Source: a virus
Lineage: Duplodnaviria > Caudoviricetes
Direction: 5' to 3' (one strand)
IMG/VR virus record: IMGVR_UViG_3300021400_000126
Coordinates: 1 to 64,000 of that record
Length of the DNA: 64,000 bases
The notes below the pieces were generated by a model that ran no database searches, had not been told where the DNA came from, and saw only the letters and a program-made list of their open reading frames with translations. A program made the position numbers and the translations under genes. Position 1 is the first letter of the stretch, and each line of letters starts with the position of its first letter. Below are positions 5,511 to 61,421 of this stretch, piece by piece.

Positions 5511-6629
5511 AGTCTACTGTTGATATTGCCGAGTTGTAAAAAAAGATTGTGAACCTTGCTAAAGGGTGTCGTATATTACGGCTAACGGTATCAGTGAAAT
5601 AAGATATGTAAATACATATACGAATCAACTGACTAAGAGAGTAAGCGACCTGAAAAGGTTAGGCATATAATACCGTGCTAAACTTTTTTCTAAAAATCAA
5701 GGTCAAAGTTAAATAATTTATCAAGGTCAATTTTTATATATTATAGAAGAAAATAAAAGGAGATTTTGATATGATACATTTTATTTATTTAACAAAAAAC
5801 CTTATAACAAATGAAAAATATATTGGTAAACATTATGGAGAATTAAACGACAGCTATCTTGGAAGTGGAAAAATTCTTCAAAGAGCAATAAATAAATATG
5901 GAAAAGAGAATTTTCAAAGAGAAATTCTATACATTTCAAAAAATGCTCAAGAAAATAATGAAAAAGAAAAAGAATTTATAAAAGCTTTCAATGCTGTAGA
6001 AGATAGAACGTTCTATAATATCTCTGAAGGTGGGGATGGCGGAGATATATTTCATTTGTTACCAGTAGAGCAACAAGAAGAAATAAGACAAAAAGCTAAA
6101 GAAAGATCTACTGGAATCAATAATCCAAGATATGGAGTTCATTTAACAGAAGAGACTAAGGAAAAAATTAGAAAAAATAGAAATACTGATTACATGCAAA
6201 CAGCAGAATATAAGCAAGCAATGTCTAAAGCTACACTTGGAGAAAAAAATGGAATGTATGGTAAACATCATTCTGAAGAATCTAAACAAAAAATGAGTGA
6301 AGCTAAAAAAGGAAAAAAACTAGGAAAAGAAAATGGAAATGCTAAAGGTATATCTGCTTATAAAGATGAAAAATGTCAAATTTTAATTAAACATTTTGAT
6401 ACTATTCAAGAAGCATTAATTTTTGTTGGAACAAAACCAACTGATTATTCAGGAATTTCTAAAAGAATGAAAATGAATAAACCATACAAAGGATATTATT
6501 GGAAAAAAGAAAGTGTAGAGACTAATATAAAGGAATAGAGATAAGCACTATTCCGTAGCGCAATCTAGCGATAAATGAAGTAATTACTCTCAGTAATTTA
6601 TCGTGAAAGATATAGTCCATCATAAAATG
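5511..6629 (+). mobile_element. group I self-splicing intron in dnaE
   Basis: Exon ends in U paired to G in P1 (AACTCGGT|AGT...ATTGCCGAGTT); R element GTAGAGACTA near 6515, S element AAGATATAGTCC near 6607; terminal G at 6629; splicing restores ERVELG|DIDLDLCPSKR. Confidence 0.88.
5771..6538 (+). CDS. intron-encoded GIY-YIG homing endonuclease with NUMOD3-type repeats
   Basis: FIY...KYIG...YLGSG N-terminus; GMYGKHHSEESKQKMS repeats; own RBS (AAGGAG); ends TAG AGA TAA. Confidence 0.9.
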   Translation: MIHFIYLTKNLITNEKYIGKHYGELNDSYLGSGKILQRAINKYGKENFQREILYISKNAQENNEKEKEFIKAFNAVEDRTFYNISEGGDGGDIFHLLPVEQQEEIRQKAKERSTGINNPRYGVHLTEETKEKIRKNRNTDYMQTAEYKQAMSKATLGEKNGMYGKHHSEESKQKMSEAKKGKKLGKENGNAKGISAYKDEKCQILIKHFDTIQEALIFVGTKPTDYSGISKRMKMNKPYKGYYWKKESVETNIKE

Positions 6630-9272
6630 GATATTGACTTAGACTTATGTCCATCTAAACGTCCATTAATTCTTCAAAAAATAAAAGAAGAAAGAGGGCA
6701 GAATTTTAATGATGATATTGATAATTTAAGTAAAAAGAATCTCGGTTGTACATTAATTGCAACTTTTGGAACAGAAGGAACTAAAAGTGCTGTGCTTACG
6801 GCTTGCCGTGGTTATCGTTCAGAAGACTTTCCTGATGGAATTGATGTAGATACCGCACAATTTTTATCATCTTTAATTCCCAGTGAAAGAGGATTTTTAT
6901 GGCCGCTTAAAGATGTTGTGTATGGTAATAAAAATAAAGGCAGAAAACCAATTACAGCTTTTATCAATGAAATTAATAAATACCCTAGATTATTAGACAT
7001 TGCTCTCGCAATTGAAGGACTAATTAATAAAAGGTCTAGTCATGCAAGTGGGGTTATTTTATTTGATGAAGATCCTTATGAATTTGGATGTTTTATGAAA
7101 ACTCCAAAAGGAGAAATTATAACTCAATGGGATCTTCATAAATGTGAAGCCTGTGGTATGACAAAATATGATTTTCTTGTAACAGAAGTACAAGATAAAT
7201 TAGTAGAAACTATTAAACTTTTACAAAAATATAATAAAATTGATAATAATTTATCATTAAGAGAGGTTTATAATAAATATTTTCATCCAGAAGTATTACC
7301 ATTAGATGATGAAAACATATGGAAGGCATTAAGAGAAAATAGTGTTTTAAATGTTTTTCAGTTTGATTCAGCAGTCGGTTCTCAAGCTGCTAAAAAAATT
7401 AAACCAACAAATATTCTTGAGATGAGCGATGCAAATGGACTAATGAGATTAATGACATCGGAAAAAGGACAAGAGACACCAATGGAGAAATATATTCGAT
7501 ATAAAAATAATATTGACCTTTGGTATTCTGAAATGTCAAGAGCTGGATTAACAGAAGAAGAACAAAAAACTTTAGAGCCATATTTTAAACCATCTTATGG
7601 AGTTCCGCCTTCTCAAGAGCAATTGATGAGAATGTTAATGGATGAAAATATATGCAATTTTTCTTTAAAAGAAGCAAATACTGCACGAAAAATTGTTGGT
7701 AAAAAACAAATGGCAAAAATCCCAGAACTTCATCAAAAGATTTTAGACACAGCTGCCAGTCCATTATTAGGAAAATATATATGGGAACGTGGCGTTGGCC
7801 CACAAATGGGATATAGTTTTTCAACTATTCATGCTCTTGCTTATTCTTTTATAGGAGTTCAAACTCTATATATTGCAACTCATTGGAATCCTATTTATTG
7901 GAATACAGCGTGTCTAATTGTTAATAGCGGTTCTCTTGAAGAACAAGAAAATGTAGAAATAGTAAACATATATGAAAAAGAAGATTTTGAAACATATACT
8001 TATGAAGACTTACCTGATAGAAGTGGGAAAAAGAAAATAGAAAAAACAACTGATTATACTAAATTAGCAAATGCTATTGGAGATATAACTTCAAAAGGTA
8101 TTAAAGTATCTTTGATTGATATTAATAAATCTGGTTTTAGTTTTGAACCAGATGAAGAAAATAATGAAATTTTGTTTGGATTAAAGGGTGTTAATAAAAT
8201 TGGTGGGCCAGTCATTAATCAAATTATTAACAACCGCCCATATACTGGAATTATTGATTTTATGAAAAAATGTCCATTAAATAAAACTCAAATGATTTCA
8301 TTAATTAAATCTGGAGCATTTGATAAAATAGATAATAATTGGGCATCTAAATTATGTAAACAACCTCGTTATGCGATTATGGCATATTATATTTCTTTAA
8401 TTAGTGAGCCTAAAAATAGATTAACTCTTCAAAATTTTAATGGTCTTATGCAAAAAAAGATTGTTCCAAATTCTTTAATTTATGAACAAAAAACATTTGC
8501 ATTTAATAAATATTTAAAAAAGAAAAAATATAAAGAATATTATTATATGTCTATAGATGATTTAAATTTTTATGAAGAACTTTATGATAATGAAGGTTTA
8601 GAAATTATTCAAGGCACTCCATGTATTCAACAAAAAACATGGGATAAAATGTATAAGAAAATAATGGATTCCGCAAGAGAATGGTTAAAAGAAAATCAAA
8701 CAGAACTTCTTAATCAATATAATAATATTTTATTTGAAGAATATTGGAATAAATATGCAATAGGGAATATTTCCGCCTGGGAAATGGAAAGTCTATGTTT
8801 TTATTATCATGAACATGAATTAAAAAATATTAATAATCATAAATATGGAATTGTAAATTTCTTTAATTTAAATTATGAACCTGAAGTAGATTATTTCTTT
8901 AAACGCGGCGGAAGGGATATCCCAATTTTTAAATTATATAAAATTGCAGGGACTATTATTAGTAAAAACAATACCAAATCTTCTATTGTGATATTAACCA
9001 CAGACGGAGTAGTTAATGTAAAATTTACTAAAGAATATTATGCAATGTTTAATCGTCAAATTTCTGAAAAACAAGAAGATGGTAGTAAAAAAGTTTTAGA
9101 AAAAGGGTGGTTTGTTAGAGGCACAAAAGTTATGATTACCGGATATAGAAGAGAAGATACTTTTGTTGCAAAAACCTATAAATCAACTCCAACCCATCAA
9201 CTGTATAGAATTATAGACATTAGAAATGGGAATATTACATTAGAGCATGAAAGGATAAAAACAAATGAATAA
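6630..9272 (+). CDS. dnaE: DNA polymerase III alpha subunit, exon 2
   Basis: DIDLD, HASGV, KYDFL, GYSFSTIHALAYS motifs; spliced product about 1339 aa. Confidence 0.92.
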   Translation, partial: DIDLDLCPSKRPLILQKIKEERGQNFNDDIDNLSKKNLGCTLIATFGTEGTKSAVLTACRGYRSEDFPDGIDVDTAQFLSSLIPSERGFLWPLKDVVYGNKNKGRKPITAFINEINKYPRLLDIALAIEGLINKRSSHASGVILFDEDPYEFGCFMKTPKGEIITQWDLHKCEACGMTKYDFLVTEVQDKLVETIKLLQKYNKIDNNLSLREVYNKYFHPEVLPLDDENIWKALRENSVLNVFQFDSAVGSQAAKKIKPTNILEMSDANGLMRLMTSEKGQETPMEKYIRYKNNIDLWYSEMSRAGLTEEEQKTLEPYFKPSYGVPPSQEQLMRMLMDENICNFSLKEANTARKIVGKKQMAKIPELHQKILDTAASPLLGKYIWERGVGPQMGYSFSTIHALAYSFIGVQTLYIATHWNPIYWNTACLIVNSGSLEEQENVEIVNIYEKEDFETYTYEDLPDRSGKKKIEKTTDYTKLANAIGDITSKGIKVSLIDINKSGFSFEPDEENNEILFGLKGVNKIGGPVINQIINNRPYTGIIDFMKKCPLNKTQMISLIKSGAFDKIDNNWASKLCKQPRYAIMAYYISLISEPKNRLTLQNFNGLMQKKIVPNSLIYEQKTFAFNKYLKKKKYKEYYYMSIDDLNFYEELYDNEGLEIIQGTPCIQQKTWDKMYKKIMDSAREWLKENQTELLNQYNNILFEEYWNKYAIGNISAWEMESLCFYYHEHELKNINNHKYGIVNFFNLNYEPEVDYFFKRGGRDIPIFKLYKIAGTIISKNNTKSSIVILTTDGVVNVKFTKEYYAMFNRQISEKQEDGSKKVLEKGWFVRGTKVMITGYRREDTFVAKTYKSTPTHQLYRIIDIRNGNITLEHERIKTNE

Positions 9273-34707: not shown

Positions 34708-34789
34708 ATTCGTCTTTTGATTTTAAAAAAACTTTTGGATTATTGTTATTGTTATATTCGTCTTTTGATTTTAAAAAAACTTTTGGATT
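34708..34789. repeat. 34-bp perfect direct repeat
   Basis: ATTCGTCTTTTGATTTTAAAAAAACTTTTGGATT at 34708 and 34756. Confidence 0.95.
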
Positions 34790-35119
34790 GGGAAAGTTGG
34801 AGAGCAAAAGTTTTTTCACTTTCCCAAAAAGTTTTTTCCCATAATACACCCCCGCCCATTTTAATTTTATTTTCATACTAAGAAATACTCATACATACAG
34901 TCTGTAGATGAACGAAAAAAACGCTGAGCAACGCTGACTTGTAGCGGGGCCTTAACACAAACAATGAACAAACGCAACGCCAGCAAAATACAATAATACA
35001 ACAAAAGTATGTACAATAAATAAAGCAAATAATATAAGATATAAACAAAAAAGCAATAGATGATGTAAGGGAACTAATACGTTCGCAGGGCAGCCAACGA
35101 CCATCAAGCATCGAGAACA

Positions 35120-36315
35120 TTGTTAAAATATAGTCAAACACTTTTTCTTCAAGCATTTTGTTAAACAATAGACAAACACTCTTTCCTATAATTCACTTGT
35201 TTAATCAATCAACCAATGTTACTACTACTAAATTATTGCGCTCTAACAAAACAGACGAAAAAAATCAGTAACTTTTCAGGTTTTGTTAAATACTTAACAA
35301 AAGCTAACCAGCTAGTAACGGCATTGACAAACTATTAACAATTGCTAGCACGAGGCTTGTTAGTTATTTAACAAATAAGGTTTATGTACAAACATTGTTA
35401 ATAACTTAGCAAAGATAGAAGGATAGGTAGGTCAACAAAGGTAGGGAGTAAGGCAAGGCAGGAGAAGTAGAGACAAACCAAAGAGAACAAGAGAAGAAAG
35501 AGAACAACACAATAACACAATCAATCAACAACACAATGATAATAATATAATAATAAATATGTATGTACTATGGTAGGGTATGGGTAGGGGTGTGTAAGGT
35601 AGGGATGGGGTATCCACTGTGCAGGTATCTATCTAATAACTGTAGAAGCTTGTTAAACAATTAACAATAGAAGATTGTTAAGATGTTAACAACATGCATC
35701 CGGACGAGCAGGAAGATAGGTCATGATTAAGCTGTCAATGAAGCGAGCTTGTTAAAGTATTAACACATTGATAAGATAAGCGAATAGATAAAATAAGAAG
35801 ATTGTTAATAAAATAACTTTTAAATAATGATTGACATTTAGATAAAGATAGTATATAATAAAAGAGAACTAAGAGTTAACCACTAAACACAGCCACAAAG
35901 AAAGGACGTGCAAACAATGCGTAAAGCTATAACAACAATCATCATTACAGTAATCATGTTAACTATGTTCTATGTATCAGCATGGATCGAGGCACACTAC
36001 ACAAGAGAGGCAACAGTCATTGAAGTAAATGATAACATTGTAACTGTTGTTGATGATACTAATAACTTTTGGTCATTTGAAGGAACTGAATTCAATGTCA
36101 ATGATAAAGTAACAATGACAATGGATTCAATGAATACAGACTTAAACATCTATGATGATGAAATAATAAATGTAGAAAAGAACTAATAATTAATATTAAG
36201 AACTCTTTAATTAGACTTAATTAAAGAGTTCTTTTTTTGTACTATCAAGAGATAGTAAGATAAAAGCTTGTTAAGTCAACGAGTCAATGAAGCGAGATTG
36301 TTAAACATCTAACAA
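35120..36315. promoter_or_regulatory. array of Rex-operator-like palindromes TTGTTAA-N4-TTAACAA
   Basis: Perfect at 35283, 35650, 35675; one mismatch at 35357, 35395, 35749, 36298; weaker at 35120, 35158, 35324, 35802. Confidence 0.75.
35908..36186 (+). CDS. hypothetical membrane-anchored protein
   Basis: Consensus promoter at 35831, N-terminal hydrophobic segment, downstream hairpin AAGAACTCTTTAATTA/TAATTAAAGAGTTCTT plus U-tract. Confidence 0.65.
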   Translation: MQTMRKAITTIIITVIMLTMFYVSAWIEAHYTREATVIEVNDNIVTVVDDTNNFWSFEGTEFNVNDKVTMTMDSMNTDLNIYDDEIINVEKN

Positions 36316-36975
36316 ATAGATAATAATAAATATAATAAGATAAGTAAACAATACATAAATGTATTGATAGATGTAAATATAATACACTTATAGTTATTAC
36401 TATTGAACCTCGCGGGCGGCGGCTGGGCGGCCGAAAAATTATACCACATGCCGTTGCCATTTGTCAATTAGGAAAATGTAACAAAAAAACAATTAAATAA
36501 TTATCCCATTTTGTGCAATATTTTTTTAATAAACCGGTTGACAAAATAAATATCTGATGATATAATGAATATAACAAAAGAGATAAGGACACAAAAGAAA
36601 GGGAGTAAAAAATGACAGTATATAAAGTATTTGAAAAGTTAGGAAAAGAAAAGGTTTGTAGAATGACTACTGAAAACATTGAAGAAGCTAAATCTTACGT
36701 TAGATATTTAAGAGCCTGTTATCGTAGAACTTGGATGGAAGAAAGAGTTGAAGATTCCTCTTTATAAAAAAGGAAGTGATAAAAATGACTAAAAAACAGA
36801 AAAAAGCACAGAATAACACAAATAGAGTTTTTATCTACATGAACACAGGAACACGCACACATAAAACAAAAAAAGACTACAATAGAAAAGAAAATAAAAA
36901 AATTTGTAGAAAAGCCTTGACAGAATATTAAAAAGAGAGTATAATCAAGATAACAAAAGAGAGGAGGACTAAAAA

Positions 36976-37281
36976 ATGAAGAAAAGTAGCCACTGGAAAT
37001 TAGAAAGAAAAGAAAGAGCAAAAATCATCGCTCAGATCGGGAAAGGTAACATTATTAAAGAAGTTGAAGTTGATAGAAATCATCCTAACGGACCTGAAAT
37101 CCATAAAATCAGCGACACAGGGATTATCACAATCTTCAATAAAAGAACTAAAAAAATGATTACTCAGTTAATCGCAAGACCTGGACAGATTAGAAGATAC
37201 TTTAATGAAAATGAAATTATCCCTACTGGATTACTTGATTTAGCAAGAGAGCATCAGAAAATGGCTTATAACATGGCTTAG
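36976..37281 (+). CDS. hypothetical early protein
   Basis: TTGACA-N17-TATAAT at 36917, GGAGG RBS, ends TAG plus hairpin. Confidence 0.75.
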   Translation: MKKSSHWKLERKERAKIIAQIGKGNIIKEVEVDRNHPNGPEIHKISDTGIITIFNKRTKKMITQLIARPGQIRRYFNENEIIPTGLLDLAREHQKMAYNMA

Positions 37282-37381
37282 AAGAAAATAAAAATTTTCT
37301 TCTTTTCTTTAAAAAAATGCTTGACAAAATTCAAATCATCGGTTATAATAAAGACAGATAAAAGAAAGGGAGGTAAACCAA

Positions 37382-37534
37382 ATGAAAAAGACAAGAGACG
37401 AAATGCTTACAGATATCATCAGAAAATGGGGATTTGAGAATGCGGCGACTATCACCTTCGCAACTCTCATGGACGACAGTAAGATTTCTGAAAGAGCCTT
37501 ATACGAAGCCTACAGAGGATTCATGAGCCTGTAG
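37382..37534 (+). CDS. 50-aa early protein (paralog of 38728..38880)
   Basis: Promoter at 37321, GGAGG RBS; MKKTRDEMLTDIIRKWGFE; ends TAG. Confidence 0.75.
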   Translation: MKKTRDEMLTDIIRKWGFENAATITFATLMDDSKISERALYEAYRGFMSL

Positions 37535-37575
37535 GCTCTTTTTTTATTGTCGGGCCGGCTGCGCACGGGGCAGCC

Positions 37576-37755
37576 GGTTAACTGCAACTAACTTGGGTTC
37601 GGCTTTTCTAACTTGAGTTAGTTAAAACTAATCTGAGTTAGATCCTTCCCAAAATGGTTAGTCATAACTAATCCCAATTAACCATAACTAACCTCAGTTA
37701 GTTATAGCTAATTAAAGTTTGTCTTATTTAACTCAAGTTAGTTATGTCTATATCA
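37576..37755. repeat. nine tandem 20-bp units, each with a GTTAG-N6-CTAAC-like palindrome
   Basis: Exact 20-bp period from 37576; arms conserved, N6 spacers differ. Confidence 0.85.
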
Positions 37756-37885
37756 AAATTGACTAGTTAAAAAATTACCCTTCAAACTGGACAAAAATTT
37801 ACCCTTTGACAACAATTTTTTGCATGGTACAATTTATTGCCATAGTGTATAATAAGGACAATTAAAGAAAGGGAGGACCGGATCG

Positions 37886-38353
37886 ATGAAAAAAATTGAA
37901 GCTGAAATCAGAATTAACTACACATTTGACAATAACCGCAAAGGTGCTAAATATACTTTGAATGGTCTTAATTGGATGAATCACGGTGAATTTGCCGAAA
38001 TTGTCACTAAAAACATCTTAGGTTTTGAATCTGTTAAAGATGCTAATACAGCTTTTGATAAAGGCTCTGACATCCCCGAAATCAAGGCTTCTGTAAAATC
38101 TAGCAAAGCCAGTTTAACAAGCATGAAACTTGCTGATACTTTTGAAGAAAGTATGAATAAATACTTCAAAAGAACACATTCAGAAATTTTCATCTATACA
38201 GTAATCATTGATGAAAATGCTACTCTTTACATGATGAATGAAAAAGAATTTAGACTTTTCATGATGAATTTTAGTAGCCTTAATGAAAGAAAGGTTATCC
38301 GCTTTAAAGCCACAAGCGGAAAAATGATAAAATTTCTTGAGAGTCTTGCTTAA
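37886..38353 (+). CDS. hypothetical early protein, possible PD-(D/E)XK-like fold (distant paralog of 39288)
   Basis: NHGEFAE...KDANTAFDKGSD...SVK versus NRGEIFE...KDNIPFTDDGD...QIK. Confidence 0.65.
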   Translation: MKKIEAEIRINYTFDNNRKGAKYTLNGLNWMNHGEFAEIVTKNILGFESVKDANTAFDKGSDIPEIKASVKSSKASLTSMKLADTFEESMNKYFKRTHSEIFIYTVIIDENATLYMMNEKEFRLFMMNFSSLNERKVIRFKATSGKMIKFLESLA

Positions 38354-38727
38354 AGGCTCTTAAGAAACTAACCAAAAATTTACCTATCAACAGCAAAAAA
38401 TTGCATGGTAACAAAAACCGGTATGTGATATACTCTAGATAGTTCAAGAGAGGAGGTACACAAGATGTACAAAGAGATGTTTGTAGAATACTTATTACCA
38501 GGAAACCCAATTACACAGTCAGAGCGGATGAGCTGGGAAGCCTTCTGTGACTTCTGCACATGGTGGGGAGTTGAAATCCTCTTCTGTTGTGCCACTGATG
38601 ACCCGAGGGTGAATGTGGAGTGATCCACATCCCCTCAAAAATAAATTTAAAAAATTTTAAAAAATGTCTTGACAGATTTTAAAAAATTTGATACTATAGA
38701 GTCAGAAAAAGAAAGGGGGTAACAAAA

Positions 38728-38880
38728 ATGACAAAGACTAGAGATGAGATGCTTACAAACATCATTAGAAAATGGGGATTCGAGCACAACTTCACAATCG
38801 ACTTCGCGGTTGCTATGGAGGACGCCCACTTCACAGACAAGATGCTCACAGACTTATATAGAGGATTAATGGACTTATAA
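38728..38880 (+). CDS. 50-aa early protein (paralog of 37382..37534)
   Basis: MTKTRDEMLTNIIRKWGFE; ends TAA. Confidence 0.75.
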   Translation: MTKTRDEMLTNIIRKWGFEHNFTIDFAVAMEDAHFTDKMLTDLYRGLMDL

Positions 38881-38959
38881 GGTCCATTAATTTTTTGTCG
38901 GCCCGCGGGCCGCCGGCGCAGCCGGAGAACCATTATATCACACCTCTCGAGTTTTGTCA

Positions 38960-39184
38960 ATAGGCAAATTATACAAATTTACACCCCAATTCTTTCCCAA
39001 AATTCTCTGTTTTGCACAAAGACCAATAAAAAAATCAACCAATTTTTTTTGTAAAAACTGCACAAAAACATTCAGCTTTATTGTGCAAAATTTTACCTCA
39101 TTTTTTGTTGATTTTTCACAAAAGAATTCCAGTTTCTTTGTGCACATTGACAGTCCGCAAAATTTCCTTGTGCAAATTATACAA
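38960..39184. promoter_or_regulatory. cluster of degenerate 17-bp TTGTGCA-N3-TGCACAA sites
   Basis: Sites at 38960, 39003, 39049, 39081, 39105, 39138, 39168 in a non-coding gap. Confidence 0.6.
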
Positions 39185-39287
39185 TAAACTACCCCTAAAT
39201 TGCCTTCCGGTTTGTGAGGTATTTTGTTTGACAAGTCCCCTCATCCGTGCTATAATCTAATCAAGATAAAGAAAGGAGAACAAAGAC

Positions 39288-39746
39288 ATGACAAACACAG
39301 TATTATTCGCACATCTGATCGAGGGATATAACAAGTTAGCTTTCACTCACAACTACATTTATGGCTTCTGTTTCCAGAACATGGTCTATATGGTCAAGGC
39401 TACCGCCGAAGATATGCCTTTCGTTCTGAAACTTGACAAGGCAAGCCGTGGGGCTGGATATGCATTAAGGTTTAAGCCTAACAAGGCTCAGAAAACCTTC
39501 CTTCTTGCCAAAGGTGCTACCGCTATATGCTCCAAGGAATTCTTCGAAGCAACTGTAAAAGAAAGCAAATATAATAGGGGTGAAATCTTCGAAAAGATGG
39601 TCACTGAATTTTATGGTCAGGTTTGGGAAAAGGATAATATTCCTTTCACAGATGACGGTGACCTTACAGTTGACGGTGTAGCATATCAGATTAAATTTGA
39701 AAAAGCTACATTCACAAATGAGAAATCCCTTGCAAGGATGATGTAG
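39288..39746 (+). CDS. hypothetical early protein, possible PD-(D/E)XK-like fold
   Basis: Promoter at 39228, AAGGAG RBS; TAG stop lies in the loop of an 11-bp hairpin. Confidence 0.75.
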   Translation: MTNTVLFAHLIEGYNKLAFTHNYIYGFCFQNMVYMVKATAEDMPFVLKLDKASRGAGYALRFKPNKAQKTFLLAKGATAICSKEFFEATVKESKYNRGEIFEKMVTEFYGQVWEKDNIPFTDDGDLTVDGVAYQIKFEKATFTNEKSLARMM

Positions 39747-39820
39747 CATCCTTGCAAAATTTTTCTTGACAAAATAATAAAAATAGTATATAATTTATAT
39801 ATAGAAAGGAGATATGGAAC

Positions 39821-40282
39821 ATGGGTTTAGATAAAGCGATTTTTTATGGGAAAGAACATAGGCATCCCTATTATAAAGCAAAAGCTGTTTCTCCTACCTG
39901 CCGAAACCATGGAACTTGTCCTTGGTGCGAAGCAAACAGAAAATATAAGTATATTAGAAAAAATAAACAAACATTAAAAGAATTAAAAAATTTCAAAAAA
40001 GGTATTGACATTTAAAAAATCCTGTGCTATAATTAAGACAACAAAAGAAAAGACACTTAAAAAGAAAGGGGAACTTACATGAGATTAGTTCATTACATCG
40101 TAGAAAAGACAGATAAGACTCAGTTTGAAACTACTAGCTACGCAGTTGCTACAAAAGATGGCAATCACATCGTTAAGACTTTCTTAACAGATATTGATGA
40201 AACAACAGACAAACAGAGAAACGAGCAGAAAGCACATCGTGCAAAGGTTCGTGAGGTCCTGCGGAAAAAGAGAGATGCATAA
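39821..40282 (+). CDS. two small early genes (39821..40015 with CRNHGTCPWC motif; 40079..40282)
   Basis: Each has its own TTGACA/TATAAT promoter and RBS. Confidence 0.7.
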
Positions 40283-40595
40283 TCTCTCTTCTTTTTTACC
40301 CTTGCGGGAATTCGCCCGGGCACTGATTTGACCCGGCCCGCCGCTGCCCTAATCTTTCATTATACTACAAAACGGATCTATGATCAATAGGCAGAATTAC
40401 CAAAATATTTTGTGCATTTTGTCTATTGTATTTTTTTAAAAATCTGATATAATAATAAGTGTCAAGGGAAAGGAGTTAAAAAATAAAAATAAAAAAAAAT
40501 TAAAAAAACTCTTGACAAATAAAAAAACCTATGATATAATAAAGGTACAAAGAAAGAAAAAACAAAATCTTAAAGAAAGAAATGAGGTATGTATT

Positions 40596-40940
40596 ATGAC
40601 AAAAAGAGAAATGTTTGCTGAGATTCGTAAGGTTGTTGCTGATAATGCTGAGATGGTAGCTTTTATCGACCATGAAGTAGAGCTGTTGAACCGTAAGTCT
40701 GGCGGTCAGCGGAAACCTACTAAGACTCAGTTAGAAAATGCTGAGTTTAAGGCTGAGATTGTTGCTTTCTTAGGTGAGGTTGGAACTCCTCACACCATCA
40801 AGGAGATTCAGGCGAATGTCCTTAACATCGCAAATCTCACCAATCAGAGAGTAACTCACATGCTCACTGATTTGGTTAAGGATGGAGTTTTAAATAAGGA
40901 GTATGTAAAGAGAACTCCTTACTATTACATTGCACAGTAG
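40596..40940 (+). CDS. winged-helix DNA-binding protein, MTKREMFAEIR family copy 1
   Basis: GAGGT RBS; C-terminal TIKEI...TNQRVTHMLTDLVKDG.L.K wHTH pattern. Confidence 0.8.
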   Translation: MTKREMFAEIRKVVADNAEMVAFIDHEVELLNRKSGGQRKPTKTQLENAEFKAEIVAFLGEVGTPHTIKEIQANVLNIANLTNQRVTHMLTDLVKDGVLNKEYVKRTPYYYIAQ

Positions 40941-41086
40941 CCCTAATAAATGGGGCGGTCATCGCAAGGTGGCTTGCCCCATGGGCTCGCCCGGCCGATT
41001 TTTCAAATGAAAATTAAAAATTAGCAGTTGACAAATTTTTTAAAATATGATATAATAAATTTACAAAAGAAAAAGGAGGAAAAAAC

Positions 41087-41603
41087 ATGACTATTAAACC
41101 TTTAACGTATGAAGAATTAATTTCTTTAGCCCTTGAATATTATGAGAAGGGCGGAGATGGAGTTTATGAATGTTGGGATGAAAAATATTTCAATGAGTAT
41201 GTAGAAACTTTTGGCCCCATTTATAAAAGCAATGCTCTTGCTATCTTTGAGTATGACTATGAAATCCGCAAAGATTTTGAAGCCACAATTTGGTAAGATT
41301 TTTTAAAATCATTATTCATTTTTAAATAAAAGAAAGTAGGTGCTATTTATGTGCGGAGAATATCGGCTCTATTCAAGATTAGAAGATGGTGAAACAGTTT
41401 TAGAGTTATGGGGCGGTAGTACTAAACACCCCGATAGTATTTTCTTCTTTTCTGATTTCAATAAAACAGATTGGATTGATTATCAGAATCAGATTTTTCA
41501 GTGGATTTTAGAATGTGCTAGTAAATTGACTCTTCCTGTTCATGCTTATTACCTTACAGAGTGGGCAATGGAAGGATACAAGGCACAAAGGGGATTAAAA
41601 TAA
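41087..41603 (+). CDS. two small acidic early genes (41087..41296, 41340..41603)
   Basis: Promoter at 41028, AAGGAGG RBS. Confidence 0.65.
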
Positions 41604-41917
41604 ATGGGGGGCACCCCCATTTTTGCCCGGGCCGCCGAGCGGATCCGCCCTAAAAAAAATAAAAAAAAATTGAAAAAAGTGTTGACAAATGAATTAATCT
41701 TTGCTATAATTAGTTCAGAAGGTGAGGGAAGGAAGCAAGGTAACCCCCAAGACGCAAGATGTCGCAGTAAGACTTCCTTGATAAAGACCCACCACCGCAA
41801 GCCTAAGTCTTACTTTGCGGTATATAAATGTGAGGCAACATAGCACAGAGTCTGGAAGTGCTAGGCTGGTAAGATGGACTCTTTCTTTTAACAAAAGCTA
41901 GAAAAGGAGATTTTCAA

Positions 41918-42580
41918 ATGGAAAAAAATACTTACTTCATCGTTGTTGACACAGAAACTACAAATTCCATTGATGACCCGTTATGCTATGATGTTGGATT
42001 CGCAGTGATTGATAAGACAGGGCATGTTTATGAAAGTCATTCTTTTGTAGTAGCTGATATCTTTCTTGATAAAGAGTTGATGAGTTCCGCATATTTTGCT
42101 GATAAAATCCCGCAGTATTGGCAGGATATCAAACAGGGCAAAAGAATTTTGAAATCATTTTTTAATATCAAAAAGGCTTTTGCTCAGTGTGTAAGAAAAT
42201 ATAAAGTCAAGATTGTTTTAGCACATAACGCACGTTTTGACTACAGGTCTTTAAATCTGACTCAGCGGTTTTTGACTTCTTCAAAATATAGATTCTTCTT
42301 TCCTTTTGGGGTTGAGATTTGGGATACTTTGAAAATGTCAAGAGAAGTCCTCAATAATCTTGAGGAGTACGGAGAGTTCTGTTATAATAATGACTACTTA
42401 ACAAAAAGACTTTGCAAGCGGTTTACCGCAGAAATCATTTACAGATTCATCACTGGAAATAATAGCTTTGAAGAAAGCCATACAGGACTTGAAGATGTAT
42501 TGATTGAAAAGGATATTTTCGTTTTCTGTATTAATAGAAAGCCTAATATTAATGGTGCTTTGTGGAGTAAGGCTTGCTAG
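41918..42580 (+). CDS. DEDDh 3'-5' exonuclease (paralog of 47029)
   Basis: VVDTET, AHNARFD, IWDT, HTGLED. Confidence 0.85.
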   Translation: MEKNTYFIVVDTETTNSIDDPLCYDVGFAVIDKTGHVYESHSFVVADIFLDKELMSSAYFADKIPQYWQDIKQGKRILKSFFNIKKAFAQCVRKYKVKIVLAHNARFDYRSLNLTQRFLTSSKYRFFFPFGVEIWDTLKMSREVLNNLEEYGEFCYNNDYLTKRLCKRFTAEIIYRFITGNNSFEESHTGLEDVLIEKDIFVFCINRKPNINGALWSKAC

Positions 42581-42853
42581 TCTTGCCCCACATTGCGGCC
42601 GGGCCGCCACAAAAATTTTCAAAAAACCCCTTGACAAATAATTTCATTTGTATTATAATAAAGACGTAAAGAAAAGGAGATAAAAAATGAATGAAGAATT
42701 AATTATTAATGATTTATTGCAGAAAATTATTTCGCATAGCTCTAGATGTGCTCATTGTAAATATTTGCGTCAAGAAAATGATAATTGCTATTGCTTTTTT
42801 GCTTATGCTTGTTTAACACAAGATTTTTATTATTGGGATGAGGAGGAATAAAT

Positions 42854-43054
42854 ATGATTTGTGAAAACTGTAATAAATGTTGTCTTTGTGCGGATTGTGT
42901 AAGAAATAAAAACTATGCGGTAAATACTCCTAATCCTTGTTTCTGTGCTGATTGTGACATTTGTAAATATCACGACATGGCAACAACTTTTTGTAATCAG
43001 TACTTGACAATTAAAGACCTTGATGATATAATAGAATCAAGAAAGGGGGCATAA
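42854..43054 (+). CDS. Cys-rich small protein
   Basis: GAGGAGG RBS; 11 Cys in 66 aa. Confidence 0.6.
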   Translation: MICENCNKCCLCADCVRNKNYAVNTPNPCFCADCDICKYHDMATTFCNQYLTIKDLDDIIESRKGA

Positions 43055-43058
43055 GCCT

Positions 43059-43388
43059 ATGACAAAAAAAAAGCTGATTGAAAAAATTATGCGTGAATGT
43101 GAGCAGGACGGAGAGCCTGTAACAAAAGAAGAAGCCATAGAGATGGCAGAAATGGAAATGAAAGCTAATCAGACTCGCCACTATGAAAAGTCTGATAAGC
43201 CTAGAAAGCCTTCCTCTCGTGTGCGGAAAGTCGATACCACAAAAAAGAGAATCCTCGATAATTGTAGAGTTCTCATTGAGGGTATGGGTGGTGTAACTGT
43301 TAATGTAAAAACTGAAACTGAAGTGACTTTTGTCTTTGATGATGCTGAATACAGTTTGAGACTCGTTAAGCATCGCCCTAAAAAGTAG
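43059..43388 (+). CDS. hypothetical early protein (paralog of 45560)
   Basis: Shared KSDKPRKP..RVRK.D..K block. Confidence 0.75.
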   Translation: MTKKKLIEKIMRECEQDGEPVTKEEAIEMAEMEMKANQTRHYEKSDKPRKPSSRVRKVDTTKKRILDNCRVLIEGMGGVTVNVKTETEVTFVFDDAEYSLRLVKHRPKK

Positions 43389-43505
43389 GGGTAACACCCC
43401 TACCTTCGGGCCGGGCCGAAAATTTTTCGAATAAATTTTTCAAAAAGCCCTTGACAAAAAATCTTTTTTCTGATATACTAAAAACATCAAAAGGAGGTAC
43501 AAAAT

Positions 43506-43757
43506 ATGAATTGTTATTTTATCAATGATTTATTAAATTGTAGTGATGAAGAGCTTAGGGAAATTGATAAAACAATTGCTGAAGAGTTAGAAAATAGAAA
43601 AAAATTAAAAAGAAAAGAAGCTTTTGATACCTTAATGGATGCTCTTGAAACTATGGCTAGAGAATATCCTTATGAAGTATTTGATATTGAATCTTCTAGC
43701 GGTGAGTGTGCCACTCTTGATTGGGAAGATTTATACAAATCTCTTCTTGAATGCTAA
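43506..43757 (+). CDS. small acidic early protein
   Basis: Promoter at 43451, AAGGAGG RBS. Confidence 0.7.
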   Translation: MNCYFINDLLNCSDEELREIDKTIAEELENRKKLKRKEAFDTLMDALETMAREYPYEVFDIESSSGECATLDWEDLYKSLLEC

Positions 43758-44406
43758 TGTGGGGAAATATTTTCCCCACATTTTTCATTTTTGGTCCGGG
43801 CGGCCGATCCGCCCTAACCCCTCATTATAACATAAATAGCCGCTGCCTGTCAATCGTCAAACCGCACAAAATTCTTCTTAATTCTTTGTGCAATATTCCC
43901 CTATTGATTTTTATAAAAAATTATGATAAAATATATTTGAAGATAAGGAAAGAGCAACAAAATTGAATAGGGTGGTCGGCAGAGCATAATCGCCTATCGG
44001 TCACTTGAAAGACAGACAGCTCAAAAAAATCTTCAAAAAATTTAAAAAAACTCTTGACAAACTCAAAAGCCTATGGTATAATGAGTACAGAAAGAGAGAG
44101 GAGATGGAAAACATGAGAGACCCACCGATAAACCAATGTCGAACATAACGGAACTGTTGTAACGCACCCCATCCTGAAAAGAGGTGTTCAAATATGAAAT
44201 TGTTAAAATTTAAATATAGGCTCTAAGCGGAAGTCGCTCCGCTATAACAGAAATGGCGATAGGGAGCAAAAAGGGTGGCCACTGGCCATGGTCACCCTCC
44301 CGAAAAAAATTTAAAAAAACTCTTGACATTTTAAAAATAAAATGTTATAATCAATATGTAAGATAAAGAAAGGGCAAAGCCCCCAACAAGAAAGGATGTG
44401 CTAATT

Positions 44407-44760
44407 ATGACAAAGAGAGAAATGTTCGCAGAGATTCGTAAGGTAGTTATCGACAACGCAGAAATGGTAGCCTTCATTGACCACGAGGTTGAGTTACTGA
44501 ACCGCAAGAGCGGTGGAACTCGCAAGCCTACCAAGACTCAGCTTGAAAACGCACAGTTTAAGGCTGATATCCTCGCCGCTCTCGCTGAGGTTGGCAAGCC
44601 TGTAACCATTAAGGAACTGTGCGAGGTCTGCCCCACTGTCGCAGGTCTGACTAATCAGCGTATTACTCACATGCTGACTGACCTCCGCAAGGGCGGAGAG
44701 GTCACTCGGGAGTACATCAAGAGGGTTGCTTACTTCACGGTAGGCAACGAGGGAGAGTAA
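44407..44760 (+). CDS. winged-helix protein, MTKREMFAEIR family copy 2
   Basis: Near-identical N-terminus to 40596 and 45124. Confidence 0.8.
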   Translation: MTKREMFAEIRKVVIDNAEMVAFIDHEVELLNRKSGGTRKPTKTQLENAQFKADILAALAEVGKPVTIKELCEVCPTVAGLTNQRITHMLTDLRKGGEVTREYIKRVAYFTVGNEGE

Positions 44761-45123
44761 TCTCCCTCCCCCTCCTACATAAAGCACTCTTAGCTATGCT
44801 AAGGGTGCTTTTTTGTGTGCTCGGCCCGCCGACACTCGTGCCGGCGGGAAATTTCCATTATACCACACCCCGCACTTTTTGTCAATAGGAAAGTTGCACA
44901 AAGTTCTCGTTCAAAAATTCCCAAAATTAGTGCAATATTCCAACTTGATATTTTTAAAAAAATTTGTTATAATTATTATACAAGGTAAGGGAAATGAAAA
45001 GTAGCTACTAAAAAATTTCTCAAAAAAATTTAAAAAACCTATTGACAAAATAAAAATCTTATGATATAATAAATACATAAAGATAAAGAAAACAAATCTT
45101 ACAAAAGAAAGGAAGTATGTACT

Positions 45124-45465
45124 ATGACTAAGAGAGAAATGTTTGCTGAGATTCGTGCTATCGTTGTTGATAATGCTGAGATGGTTGCTTTTATTGACCA
45201 TGAGATTGAGTTACTCAATCGTAAGAGCAACGGTAAGAGAAAGCCTACAAAGAATCAGCTTGAAAATACTGCTTTTAAGGCTGACATTATCGCTCACCTT
45301 GCGGAGATTGGTACTCCTAAAACTATCAAGGAACTTCAGGCTGAAGTTGATGGTCTTGGCGAACTGACCAATCAGAGAGTCGCTAGGATGCTCACTGACC
45401 TTGTAAAGGAAGGTACTCTTAATAAGGAATACGTAAAGAGAGTTCCTTACTACTTCGCAGCTTAG
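45124..45465 (+). CDS. winged-helix protein, MTKREMFAEIR family copy 3
   Basis: As above; ends TAG TAA. Confidence 0.8.
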   Translation: MTKREMFAEIRAIVVDNAEMVAFIDHEIELLNRKSNGKRKPTKNQLENTAFKADIIAHLAEIGTPKTIKELQAEVDGLGELTNQRVARMLTDLVKEGTLNKEYVKRVPYYFAA

Positions 45466-45559
45466 TAATCATGGGGGAGTTAATCTCCCCTAATTTCCCC
45501 TTGACAACAGACAATAAAGTGTGCTATAATTTAATCAAACAATAGAAGGGAGATTAAAA

Positions 45560-45961
45560 ATGTACACAAATATCAATGGTAAAAATATCAATATTCCAGA
45601 TAAGGAAATTGATAAATTAATAACTGTTTTAAAAATTTCACATGATGAAGCGGTTCAGACTTGGTTAGAAGATGAAGGTTATCTTGAAAATCCCATAGTA
45701 GAAGAGTTAACACAAAAGGCAAAGGCAAACAAGATTAGCCGTGAAGCCAAATCAGATAAACCGCGAAAACCCACTAAAAGAGTGCGGAAACCCGATGAAG
45801 AAAAGGAAAAATTGATTGAAATTCTTTCAAATTCTTTGAAAAATGCGGGATTTGAGCCACAAATCACCAATAAAAGTAAGATTATTGAGTTAAATATTGG
45901 TGAAAATCATTACAAAATTGATTTAATTAAACAGAGAACAAGCAAAAAAGCAACAAAATAG
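45560..45961 (+). CDS. hypothetical early protein (paralog of 43059)
   Basis: Promoter at 45501, GGGAG RBS. Confidence 0.75.
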   Translation: MYTNINGKNINIPDKEIDKLITVLKISHDEAVQTWLEDEGYLENPIVEELTQKAKANKISREAKSDKPRKPTKRVRKPDEEKEKLIEILSNSLKNAGFEPQITNKSKIIELNIGENHYKIDLIKQRTSKKATK

Positions 45962-46146
45962 GCTGGTTTTTAAAAAATTAGCCTATTTTTTATTAAAATC
46001 AGATAAAATTCACCACTTTAACTCGCTAAAGCGCGCCCGGGCCCGCATTTTTTCGCACTTTTTTCAAAAAAACCCTTGACAATCAAATGAGTTAATGCTA
46101 TAATAGCATTGTAAACAAGAGAGAGAATAAGAAAGGAGCAGAAACC

Positions 46147-46404
46147 ATGAAAAACTTCTTTAGAATTGAGTCAGGCTACAAATTTGAATGGAATGATTTA
46201 AGATGCTTCATTACTGTTGTTAATGTTATCTTAATCATGATGTATGGTTTATCTATTGCTTGGTTTGGTCTTGGTGTTGCGGTGATTGGAGTTATCAAGG
46301 ATTTAACTACAGATAGACGCATTAACGGCTTAATCATGCATCTTGCAAATGTATCTTTAAATATTTACTTCTTATTGATTTATTACGGAAAAATAGTTTT
46401 ATAA
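46147..46404 (+). CDS. small multi-pass membrane protein
   Basis: Hydrophobic segments; promoter at 46076, AAGGAG RBS. Confidence 0.7.
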   Translation: MKNFFRIESGYKFEWNDLRCFITVVNVILIMMYGLSIAWFGLGVAVIGVIKDLTTDRRINGLIMHLANVSLNIYFLLIYYGKIVL

Positions 46405-46481
46405 AAATTTAAAAAACCTATTGACATCCGTATAGAGATGTGATATAATACAGACAGATAAGAAAGAAAGGGGTTTTGAAA

Positions 46482-46919
46482 ATGAGAATTTGTTTTGATA
46501 TGGATGGAACAATTGCAAATCTGTACGGTGTTGATGGTTGGCTCGACATGATTTTAGCACATGATGCAACTCCTTATGCACAGGCAAAGGTTCTGCTTAA
46601 CATGAACGTATTAGCAAAAATCCTTAATAAACTTCAGAAAAGAGGTTATGAAATCGGTATCATCAGCTGGCTTGCTAAAGGAAGTACCACAGATTATGAT
46701 GAAGCTGTTACAAGAGCAAAAAAGAAATGGCTTGCTCAGCATCTTAAAAGTGTTCAGTTTGATTTTATTAAGATTGTAGCTTATGGAACTGATAAAAACA
46801 TTGTAGCAACTGGTGAAACTGATATTCTTTTCGATGATGAGGAAAGAAATAGAAACGGTTGGAATGGGGTTGCTTATGATGTTGATAACATCATCGAAAT
46901 CCTTAAGGGTTTAAACTAG
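46482..46919 (+). CDS. HAD-superfamily phosphatase/nucleotidase
   Basis: FDMDGT motif I, ILFDD motif IV. Confidence 0.8.
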   Translation: MRICFDMDGTIANLYGVDGWLDMILAHDATPYAQAKVLLNMNVLAKILNKLQKRGYEIGIISWLAKGSTTDYDEAVTRAKKKWLAQHLKSVQFDFIKIVAYGTDKNIVATGETDILFDDEERNRNGWNGVAYDVDNIIEILKGLN

Positions 46920-47028
46920 ACCTTTGAGGATTCGGCCCGGCCCACCGCATAATTTTTTAAAAAAAGTATTGACAAATAAATAAATCTATAGTATAATTAA
47001 GACATCAAGAGAAAGGAAGGACATAAGA

Positions 47029-47721
47029 ATGAACGTATTAGTAATTGACACAGAAACCGCAAACTCCATTAATCAGCCTTTACCATACGATGTTGGTTAT
47101 GCTATTGTTGATACTGTAACTGGTGAAATTCTCACTCAGAAATCTTTTGTAGTTGCGGAAATCTTCCTTGATAAAGATTTAATGAACAGTGCTTATTTTG
47201 CTGAGAAAATTCCTAATTATTGGAAGGATTTAAAGAAAGGCTCACGAGTTATGAAATCCATCTGTAATATTAGGAAATCTATCTGCTCTGACATGAAAAA
47301 ATACAACGTGAAAAAAGTTGGTGCTTATAACATGGGCTTTGACAATAGAGCAACAAAAAATGACATTCGCTACATCAGCGGTTCATTAATTAAGTGGTTC
47401 TTCCCCTACGGAACAGAACTGTTCTGCATTTGGAACATGGCTTGTTCTTCTATTCTTAGCACCAAAGAATACATTGATTTTGCTATGAATAACAATTTTG
47501 TTTCAGAGTGCGGAAACATTCAGACTAGTGCGGAGATTGCCTACCGCTTCTTAACCAATGATGTTTCTTTTGAAGAAGACCACACAGGTTTAGAAGATGT
47601 TATGATTGAAATTGAAATCATGCTTGCAGTACTTCACTCTAATTTAGAGTATGATTCAAAAGTAAGTGGTGGCTGTTGGTGGAAAGTTCAGAAAGCTAAA
47701 AAAGAATTGTGTAGAGGTTGA
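47029..47721 (+). CDS. DEDDh 3'-5' exonuclease (paralog of 41918)
   Basis: VIDTET, AYNMGFD, HTGLED. Confidence 0.85.
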   Translation: MNVLVIDTETANSINQPLPYDVGYAIVDTVTGEILTQKSFVVAEIFLDKDLMNSAYFAEKIPNYWKDLKKGSRVMKSICNIRKSICSDMKKYNVKKVGAYNMGFDNRATKNDIRYISGSLIKWFFPYGTELFCIWNMACSSILSTKEYIDFAMNNNFVSECGNIQTSAEIAYRFLTNDVSFEEDHTGLEDVMIEIEIMLAVLHSNLEYDSKVSGGCWWKVQKAKKELCRG

Positions 47722-48421
47722 GCCTTTACGCAATTCGACCGGGCCAAAAAGTTGAAAAAACCTCTTGACAACCGCATTTTTCTATGATATAATACAGATA
47801 ACAAAAGAAAGGAGATAAAAACATGGATGAGATTGTAAGAGAAGATGCTTTAACTGAAGCACAGATTTTTGAAGATAGAGCCTATCACTATTTTCAAAAA
47901 TACAAGAATGAAACTGATGTAGATGAAATTGCTTACATTTTTTCAAAAGCCTTTAAGGATATGTTTTGGCGGATTGCAGAAGATTTTGAGGAGGAATAAA
48001 CATGAAAAAATTTTACTGTCCTGTGAATGGGTGGGATTGCCCTTACTTCAAGAAAGATGGTTCTTGTGCTATTGTTGACAAAGGCGAAAATCCTGTTTTA
48101 GAGTGTGATGATGCGGCAATGTTTTGGGAGGAGGATGATGATTACTTTGTAGAGGAATAAACCCCTCTACAAATCGCCCGGGCGCTCGTCATTTTGCACA
48201 AAAACTTTCTTATTTTTTGTGCAGTATTACCACTTGTATTTTTTTAAGAATCTGTTATAATTATAAGTGTCAAGGGGATGGAATAGTAAAGAATAAAGGA
48301 AGTTACTCCCCCTAAAAAATTTAAAAAAATTTTTTAAAACCCCTTGACAAACTTAAAACTCTATGATATAATAACAATGTAAACAAAAGAAAACACTAAA
48401 GAAAGAAATGAGGTATGTGTT

Positions 48422-48781
48422 ATGACAAAAATGACTTATGTACAGGCTATTGATTTTGCAGTTGAGATGATTCAGAACGGCGAAGCTAACTTCAACGGCT
48501 TTACGGCTTCGGAGTACATTGAGAAGCTCGATGCTCTCAAGGCTCAGTTGGCGAAGCGTGCGGTTCGCAAGCCTTCCAAGAATCAGCAGGCTAATGAGGG
48601 TGTAAAGAATGATATCCTTGATATCCTCTATGCTAACGAGGGTCTGCGTTGCGGTGATATTGCTGAGCCTCTTGGTATCAGCGGTCAGAAGTGTTCTGCT
48701 CTGCTTCGTCAGCTTGTAGATGCTGGCTTGGTTGAGAAGTATACTGAGAAGCGTGTTACTTACTTCAAGAGGGTTGCCTAG
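48422..48781 (+). CDS. winged-helix protein, diverged member of the same family
   Basis: RKPSKNQ..NE..K.DIL...CGDIA...SGQKCSALLRQLV..G.V.K; leader AAAGAAAGAAATGAGGTATGT shared with 40596. Confidence 0.78.
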   Translation: MTKMTYVQAIDFAVEMIQNGEANFNGFTASEYIEKLDALKAQLAKRAVRKPSKNQQANEGVKNDILDILYANEGLRCGDIAEPLGISGQKCSALLRQLVDAGLVEKYTEKRVTYFKRVA

Positions 48782-49031
48782 CAACCCTCCCCCTTGTGGG
48801 GCGCGCCCGGGTTAATTGGGGTTTTAAAATGGATTCTTCCTTACTGACCTGAATGTGTGACCGGGCCGCGCCCAACCGCGGCCCTCCGATTCTACCACAA
48901 AAATAGCTCAATGTCAAATTTTTTTCAAAAAAATTTGCACAAAATTTTTACCTAAAATCCCAAAATTTTTGTTTATTTTGCCATCTTGTGCAGCGGGACG
49001 CGTTATGGTATAATAATAGGGGGATGCATCT

Positions 49032-49169
49032 TGCTTCATCGCTTTAAAGTGCTAAAGTATGCCAAAACACTTCAATGGTTTAAACTTCTACACTTTAGCA
49101 CTTTAAAGTATTAAAGTAGGCAACGGCACTTCAACACACTAAAGTGTAGAAGTTTAAAGTCCTGAAGAA
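49032..49169. promoter_or_regulatory. array of YACTTTA-N6-TAAAGTR-like palindromes (HisR/YerC, TrpR-family-like)
   Basis: Sites at 49032, 49040, 49068, 49091, 49099, 49127, 49150; lone copy at 46014. Confidence 0.65.
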
Positions 49170-49417
49170 AGCCTCGCGAGCCCCATTGGCGCCATATGCG
49201 ATGGCCAGCCAGAACATGAACCAAACTAACGTATATGCATTGCGGCGCCAAAACTTCATCATATGGCCGCACTTCGTGAAACTTTACTTGAAAATTTTAA
49301 AAATTTTTTGTATAATTAAAAAAACGACTTTTTTAGGCAGCGGCTCCTTGACTTTTTAAAAATTTTTTGTTATAATATTTATATAATATGATATATATAA
49401 AAAAGGAGATATATTTT

Positions 49418-49855
49418 ATGGATTTATATGAAGCATTAAAATCTGGAGTTTCCGAGGATGAACTTTTAAAAGGTTTCAACAAAGATTTAACTGAAGCTAA
49501 AGAAAAAATTACAAAAGAAATTGAAAAAGAAAAAGCTGAGAAAGAAGCTCAAGCAGAAAAAGCTAGAAAAGCTCGTCTTGCAGAGTATCGACACGAGGTT
49601 GCCGCTGCATTGTGTGACTATCTTCGTTTTGGTTTAAATGTTTTAGACACAAATGAATATATTTCTCAAACAGAAAAGGAAATTGAAGATATTCTCAAAG
49701 AATTTGAGAAAAATTTAGATAATTTATCTTTCTTTATCAAGTGGTTTGACAAAAGCCTTGACAAAAACAAAAATAAAGAGTTTAAAATTCCTTTTAAATC
49801 TTGTACTCTCTTTGACGATGACCAAATTATAAAAGATTTTATTAAAACCCTTTAA
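49418..49855 (+). CDS. hypothetical coiled-coil protein
   Basis: Promoter at 49348, AAGGAG RBS before ATG 49418, hairpin TGATGGGGAAT/ATTCCCCATCA downstream. Confidence 0.7.
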   Translation: MDLYEALKSGVSEDELLKGFNKDLTEAKEKITKEIEKEKAEKEAQAEKARKARLAEYRHEVAAALCDYLRFGLNVLDTNEYISQTEKEIEDILKEFEKNLDNLSFFIKWFDKSLDKNKNKEFKIPFKSCTLFDDDQIIKDFIKTL

Positions 49856-61031: not shown

Positions 61032-61421
61032 ATGGAAAATACAGTAAAAAAGACAAAGGCTATGTATTTTGCAGAGTTAAAAGATATGGTAATGGAAGCA
61101 GAGGAAATTACAGATGAGCTTAAGGATGAATTAGTTGATTTCCTTGATAAGCAGGTCGAGGCTATTGAAAAAAGAAAAGCGGCAGCTGCCGCAAGAGCAG
61201 AAAAGAAGAAAGCAGAATCTGACGCTCTTACAGATGCAATTTTTGCCGTTATGACTGAAGAGCTTATGACAGCAGATGAAATTATGGACGCCCTTGAGGA
61301 TGAAACCGCCACAAAGAATAAGGTTACTGCAAGATTAACTAAGTTAATTAACGCAGAAAAGGTTGTAAAAGAGACTATTAAAGTAGATGGTAAAAGGAGA
61401 ATGGCTTATAAGTTAGCCTAA
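61032..61421 (+). CDS. winged-helix protein distantly related to the MTKREMFAEIR family
   Basis: TKAMYFAEL...LVDFLDKQVE.I..R...MTADEI...KVTARLTKLI...V.K. Confidence 0.7.
   Translation: MENTVKKTKAMYFAELKDMVMEAEEITDELKDELVDFLDKQVEAIEKRKAAAAARAEKKKAESDALTDAIFAVMTEELMTADEIMDALEDETATKNKVTARLTKLINAEKVVKETIKVDGKRRMAYKLA

Follow-up and report, generated by a model that had tools for sequence, protein, structure and literature searches.

Why does a large phage carry, at the head of its early genes, a cluster of 18-bp palindromes that match a bacterial redox operator, and which protein would dock there? The source phage is a complete IMG/VR record of 133,306 bp, and the window analysed here is the 64-kb stretch that forms its first part, with a GC content of ~30%. 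The phage is presumably one of gut or rumen Firmicutes and encodes a split DnaE, a RecD-like helicase, NrdD and a sigma factor among its replication-type genes. Close DNA relatives were not found among GenBank phages; the NrdD shares 71% identity with that of Thomasclavelia phages. The DnaE-type polymerase is encoded as two ORFs with a 255-aa ORF between them (window 4134–5552, 5771–6538 and 6603–9272). The features of the locus, in window coordinates, are as follows.

34880–35907, no strand assigned: gene-free control tract, from an ORF scan, indels against the relative L152 and Rfam.
35111–35185, + strand: two copies of a 37-nt direct repeat, each a TTGTTAA half-site plus TAGnCAAACACT, both kept in L152.
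35283–35412, no strand assigned: left cluster, with sites at 35283 (perfect), 35324 (2 mismatches), 35357 (1) and 35395 (1), arms kept in L152.
35420–35620, + strand: non-coding core between the clusters, conserved against L152 and with homologs in relatives.
35650–35819, no strand assigned: right cluster, with perfect sites at 35650 and 35675, 7 bp apart, and further sites at 35749 (1 mismatch) and 35802 (3).
35831–35859, + strand: first perfect TTGACA-17-TATAAT promoter of the early block, from a promoter scan.
36298–36315, no strand assigned: outlying copy with 1 mismatch, past the terminator that ends the first early gene.

A search for TTGTTAA-N4-TTAACAA with at most one mismatch returned seven matches in the 64-kb window, all within 35283–36315, against 0.13 expected by chance; none of 100 shuffled sequences reached seven matches, and the rest of the 133-kb genome holds only one further copy at this stringency, at 100471, which together reject a chance origin of the cluster. 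The search reproduced the positions given in the initial annotation for the perfect copies (35283, 35650 and 35675) and for those with one mismatch (35357, 35395, 35749 and 36298). The four weak copies that it listed are also present, at 35120 (three mismatches), 35158 (two), 35324 (two) and 35802 (three); since ~25 matches are expected across the whole window at a stringency of 2–3 mismatches, these are weaker evidence taken alone. All four are retained in the closest relative, and those at 35120 and 35158 are half-sites within the separate 37-nt direct repeat. The 14-nt flank GTCAATGAAGCGAG, said to be common to two copies, does lie to the left of both 35749 and 36298, as part of a 41-nt direct repeat (35734–35774 versus 36283–36323, 83% identical), and a lone half-site is found at 36268, near the outlying copy.

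The tract around the palindromes had been described as largely gene-free, and this description stands: no credible ORF was found in 34880–35907, either with table 11 or with TAG read through, and the indels that separate it from L152 are not multiples of three, which rejects a hidden gene. An Rfam search of the same tract was empty, which rejects a known RNA family. The non-coding tract is bordered on its left by two copies, 48 nt apart, of the perfect direct repeat ATTCGTCTTTTGATTTTAAAAAAACTTTTGGATT, which is 34 nt long (window 34708–34789). The tract is a conserved non-coding control region that heads the early-gene block.

The array marks the start of a block of early promoters, in which ~27 perfect TTGACA-17-TATAAT matches on the + strand (35831–49348) are arranged in a cassette-like manner, nearly one per small early gene. 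The promoter at 35831 drives a gene for an 89-aa membrane protein (35917–36186), which ends at a terminator (36198–36233), and the right cluster sits just upstream of this promoter, with site 35802 stopping 11 bp ahead of the −35 hexamer. The earlier claim that most copies do not overlap a promoter agrees with our scan, in which no copy lies on a strong promoter in the window. The right arm of site 36298 overlaps the −35 element of a weak, 10/12 promoter-like match, and phage sites are generally clear of core promoters, touching one in 2 of ~154 site-to-promoter distances. Five consensus sigma-70 promoters on the − strand (window 36467, 38960, 43853, 44885 and 48917) lie inside this otherwise rightward early region; the three that were read (36467, 38960 and 48917) point leftward into a short, very GC-rich island after a gene end, and their products may be small antisense or structured RNAs.

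Arms and spacers could be compared because the tract aligns over its whole length with that of the closest relative (L011/L152). The arms are identical at 137 of 140 positions (97.9%), compared with 80% for the spacers and 80.8% for the remaining positions (arms versus these, Fisher p=1e-8). Among 119 distinct one-mismatch sites surveyed in related phages, changes in a single arm (TTGTgAA, 33; TcGTTAA, 25; gTGTTAA, 21) are far commoner than the corresponding changes in both arms (9, 1 and 3, respectively), and the predicted RNA hairpins of the palindromes are weak, at −3 to −8 kcal/mol. With weak stems and pairing that is not conserved, a reading as RNA hairpins was rejected. Retention of the half-site sequence without retention of base pairing is the signature of a dimeric DNA-binding protein. 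Judged by these comparisons, the 18-bp palindromes are under selection on their two 7-nt half-sites, which marks them as docking sites for such a protein, of host or phage origin.

For the Clostridiaceae consensus for Rex, TTGTTAANNNNTTAACAA, DAP-seq and EMSA in C. thermocellum provide validation (PMC8457756), and Rex operators (ROP) of Clostridia and other Gram-positives are the subject of Ravcheev 2012, as cited in PMC8457756. The palindrome had been called the clostridial form of the Rex operator, and rightly, as it equals this published consensus, which is matched by the three perfect and four one-mismatch copies. Five of five Erysipelotrichaceae or other Bacillota genomes that have paired boxes encode Rex, and the paired perfect boxes lie on promoters of a NuoE/NuoF-type (hydrogenase-type) operon and between bcd and thl, genes that are classic members of the Rex regulon. 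Single bacterial boxes are typically located 5–6 bp from a TTGAC −35 hexamer or overlap the core promoter, and the phage copies do not share this placement on or against the core promoter. The bacterial genomes searched hold at most two perfect sites each, compared with three within 410 bp in this phage.

The finer features of the sites agree with the bacterial boxes in part. Across 203 sites of the phage clade, spacers are 83–97% A/T per position, as in bacterial boxes; in the window, five of the seven strong sites have a G or C in the spacer. The variant most often tolerated in phages, TTGTgAA, which is the other known (main alternative) Rex half-site, is also the commonest among 28 one-mismatch half-sites read off five Rex-encoding genomes; TcGTTAA, second commonest in phages, was not found among those 28. 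Immediately before the site, phages prefer G-A and bacterial boxes A-(C/T). A phage-encoded Rex was rejected, as neither this phage nor 45 other records with arrays yielded a Rex domain. The genome bins that hold related phage contigs, which may be incomplete or mis-assigned, contain a Rex gene in two of five cases, with none seen in the other three.

Paired perfect sites at most 30 nt apart were detected in 46 IMG/VR contigs, of which this phage's clade accounts for 35 and an unrelated ~50-kb group for eight; the other three share no genes with either. One-genome-per-species collections (185,579 species) yielded 15 stretches with such pairs, five of these being clade phage contigs in genome bins. 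Complete relatives have one or two clusters each, with 24 sites in G001. Array geometry differs among the relatives: L010 has 11 tandem copies with an exact 24-bp period (920–1153), and L005 has ten copies at 20–25-bp spacing (7879–8126) beside AT-rich TTAATTAA repeats. The ~50-kb group (L016, L018, L019, L023, L026, L029, L035 and L043; GC 0.42–0.46) carries one pair of perfect sites 35 bp apart, which in L016, the one that was read, lies inside a 700-bp non-coding gap. Among cultured relatives, the Thomasclavelia phage TR-TP1 contains no copy of the palindrome and Phass-1 (OQ749652.1) a single perfect one, at 893–910 in an intergenic gap near the start of the record; cultured relatives were rejected as a test system on these grounds.

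Other 7-N4-7 palindrome families (AGTTAGT-N4-ACTAACT, ACTTTAG-N4-CTAAAGT and CGAACATATGTTCG) occur in the same intergenic tracts, always on the early side, and CGAACATATGTTCG, carried as arrays by relatives, is the exact LexA consensus (PMC8270828); no LexA box was found in this window. Phages with 86–90% identical terminases have very different mixes of families in the early region, and upstream of one orthologous gene (window 39288–39746) even sister phages have arrays of different families. The window contains three more arrays, built of other motifs, at 37.59–37.74, 39.01–39.18 and 49.04–49.15 kb. At 37586–37743, eight head-to-tail 20-bp units, each with AACTAAC-N4-GTTAGTT, lie 60–220 bp upstream of a promoter at 37806, and the related form AGTTAGT-N4-ACTAACT is seen in at least ten related loci; at 39013–39180, about seven copies of TTGTGCAAA/TTTGCACAA precede the gene at 39288–39746; and at 49040–49150, palindromes of the ACTTTAAAGT/CACTTTAGCAC type, not enriched in 306 bacterial genomes, lie upstream of a gene at 49388–49855. 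Two 50-aa paralogs (M.KTRDEML..IIRKWGFE...; window 37382–37534 and 38728–38880) are each encoded directly before a palindrome array, and a homolog is present in L049. The one sister palindrome checked for bacterial counterparts was ACTTTAG-N4-CTAAAGT, which at up to one mismatch was absent from five bacterial genomes and which matched exactly in 4 of 301 others, compared with more than 20 for a control, that is, without enrichment. At least this family therefore needs a phage-encoded binder, and the proposal that every palindrome family is a host operator was rejected.

An exact Rex operator sequence, as used in Clostridia and Erysipelotrichia, in a phage without a Rex of its own makes the host NADH/NAD+-sensing repressor Rex the most likely occupant of the sites and the best single candidate, an assignment that we put forward tentatively. 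In its favour, we count the paired perfect sites of the unrelated 50-kb group, whose complete records lack the winged-helix family described below, and the LexA-consensus arrays in relatives. Against it, we count the avoidance of core promoters, the phage-specific flanks, the TcGTTAA variant, the G or C in spacers and the three of five bins without Rex, together with the ACTTTAG family and the concentration of 35 of the 46 contigs with paired sites in one phage clade.

Several of these points could instead suit a dimeric regulator encoded by the phage, for which the palindromes would be operators, in sets that swap between relatives like immunity modules, the identity with the Rex box being coincidence or mimicry. 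We consider such a regulator somewhat unlikely, even though the coexistence of several palindrome families in the same tracts, their divergent repertoires at 86–90% terminase identity, the switch of family before one orthologous gene, the ACTTTAG family, the flank and variant preferences specific to phage sites and five winged-helix paralogs encoded by the phage all speak for it. The only recognisable phage DNA binders are five winged-helix paralogs of ~115–140 aa (window 40512–40940, 44398–44760, 45124–45465, 48422–48781 and 61032–61421), with a C-terminal winged helix that is confidently predicted (model pLDDT 90) to fold most nearly like the ArsR/MarR, Mnd1 and AspA types, and this family occurs two to six times in every large complete relative. 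The paralogs have no similarity to Rex, which rejects them as its relatives, and their recognition helices do not track the motif repertoire, which rejects them as the motif's binder: against at least six motif families there are only about three types of recognition helix, found both where an array is present and where it is absent. No phage protein tracks the motif. A gene-content comparison of 26 relatives associated array-rich loci with a sole gene family, the gene downstream of the arrays, which does not co-vary with them, and neither it nor the winged-helix paralogs behaves as the cognate DNA-binding gene of an immunity module. The other early proteins are orphans without a recognisable DNA-binding domain, among which there may be an unrecognised binder, and a chance match to the 14-position Rex consensus as well as to the LexA consensus, spacer included, is unlikely. 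The palindromes might also have no specific protein partner, as selfish or structural repeats (REP-like elements, T4-type promoter and stem-loop cassettes, or RNA hairpins). The promoter-per-gene cassettes of the early region, the fast turnover of palindrome families and arrays such as that of L010, whose exact tandem copies recur every 24 bp, would fit such repeats, but the conserved thing is the half-site sequence and not its pairing, the hairpins are weak, no Rfam family matches, and the same 14 positions are retained in distant relatives whose surroundings barely align outside the conserved core, which leaves this explanation highly improbable.

That core (35420–35620) raises a different alternative, in which the tract would be a replication origin or a physical genome end with its packaging site, and the palindromes would dock an initiator or terminase around an unwinding or R-loop core. 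It consists of a T-poor A/G/C tract, an AT-rich stretch (35535–35565) and G-quadruplex-like G-tracts (35572–35612) on the strand of early transcription; between 35480 and 35580 it is ~97% identical to L152, as conserved as the sites themselves. Homologous cores flanked by the same palindromes were found in L009, L015, L021, L028, L042 and L047, so that the composite element is retained in sub-lineages with genomes of 128–197 kb. In ~1.2 Mb of related loci, twelve G4-type tracts were counted, nine of them no more than 400 bp from at least three sites. Very AT-rich repeats border dense arrays in G001, L010 and L022. The one or two clusters per complete genome and the position of the tract, at the boundary where early promoters start, also speak for such an element. 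Repeated sites and an AT-rich element share one locus in this genome, G001, G011 and G013, but in L013, L020 and L050 the sites are dispersed along a 10-kb stretch in which most early genes are preceded by one or two of them. An initiator gene was not recognised nearby, and the exchange of array families at orthologous positions is unexpected for an origin. We regard the core as a candidate for an origin, a genome end or a non-coding RNA; as the explanation of the palindromes, an origin or terminus is decidedly unlikely, but such a role is not exclusive and would be compatible with Rex as the docking protein. A parS-like partition role was disfavoured by the presence of several different array families in one genome.

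Were host Rex the occupant, it would at low NADH coat both flanks of the core as well as the region just upstream of the first early promoter, and this coating would make the onset of early transcription, and perhaps of replication initiated at the core, depend on the redox and energy state of the host, in the mode of host Spo0A on phi29. The number of consensus sites on one phage genome matches that of an entire host chromosome, so that phage DNA, once replicated, would sequester Rex as well and might derepress host fermentation genes; titration of Rex would in this reading be a likely side effect or even the purpose of the array. The selected role could be either sensing or soaking. The decoy or scaffold role favoured in the initial annotation is, like Rex binding itself, putative. 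A literature search for phage Rex-box arrays or phage transcription-factor decoys found nothing. We regard as unlikely the stronger proposal that the array is a weapon of bare DNA, whose better-than-chromosomal Rex operators, multiplied by replication, would titrate Rex and switch on fermentation and NAD+-regenerating genes, with relatives swapping in arrays for LexA and other regulators; if true, it would be a protein-free and rapidly re-targetable device for host takeover.

Should host Rex dock at these sites, a lytic phage of anaerobes would read or rewire the NADH/NAD+ state of its host by DNA sites alone. The precedents set by phi29/Spo0A and CtrA would then reach central redox metabolism and arrays of sponge-like density, and a trait that recurs and evolves quickly across a large, abundant clade of phages from the rumen and gut would be accounted for. 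With a phage protein as the binder, the arrays would instead represent a new family of regulator and operator modules that can be swapped, and competition for host operators would be suggested by their match to the sites of Rex and LexA. Between its flanking sites, the conserved core is a candidate origin or genome end for an uncultured clade.

Lambda-type origins contain arrays of dyad-symmetric iterons, and the papillomavirus control region contains E2 palindromes of the form ACCG-N4-CGGT. Our tract resembles these systems in having several dyad-symmetric sites with a free 4-nt spacer on either side of an AT-rich core beside the first early promoter, and differs from them in that their binder is virus-encoded and known, whereas here an initiator was not found and the sites are dispersed in some relatives. 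With bacterial ROPs the phage sites share the identical 18-bp inverted repeat, an A/T-rich spacer across the clade and TTGTGAA as the main alternative half-site. Bacterial boxes, however, are single or paired and abut or overlap the −35/−10 elements of redox and fermentation genes, whereas the phage array comprises 7–11 copies in non-coding DNA, clear of core promoters and with other flanking bases. Phage genomes that bear sites for a host master regulator, and use them to time their own development, include Alphaproteobacteria phages with CtrA-binding sites, in which this has been termed 'lytic deferment' (PMC9437464), and SPbeta with its LexA boxes (PMC8270828); these involve other regulators and hosts, and their sites are promoter-associated rather than arrayed around a conserved non-coding core. 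Experiments on phi29 and Nf, two virulent Bacillus phages, have shown that host Spo0A binds and represses at boxes that overlap promoters or origins (PMC2731898). In our phage the regulator would be Rex, and the copies are more numerous and more perfect; what it has in common with phi29 and Nf is a match to the site of a host global regulator, on a lytic phage and at the head of the early region. In those two phages the sites lie near early promoters and origins, and through them the state of the host suppresses early transcription and replication.
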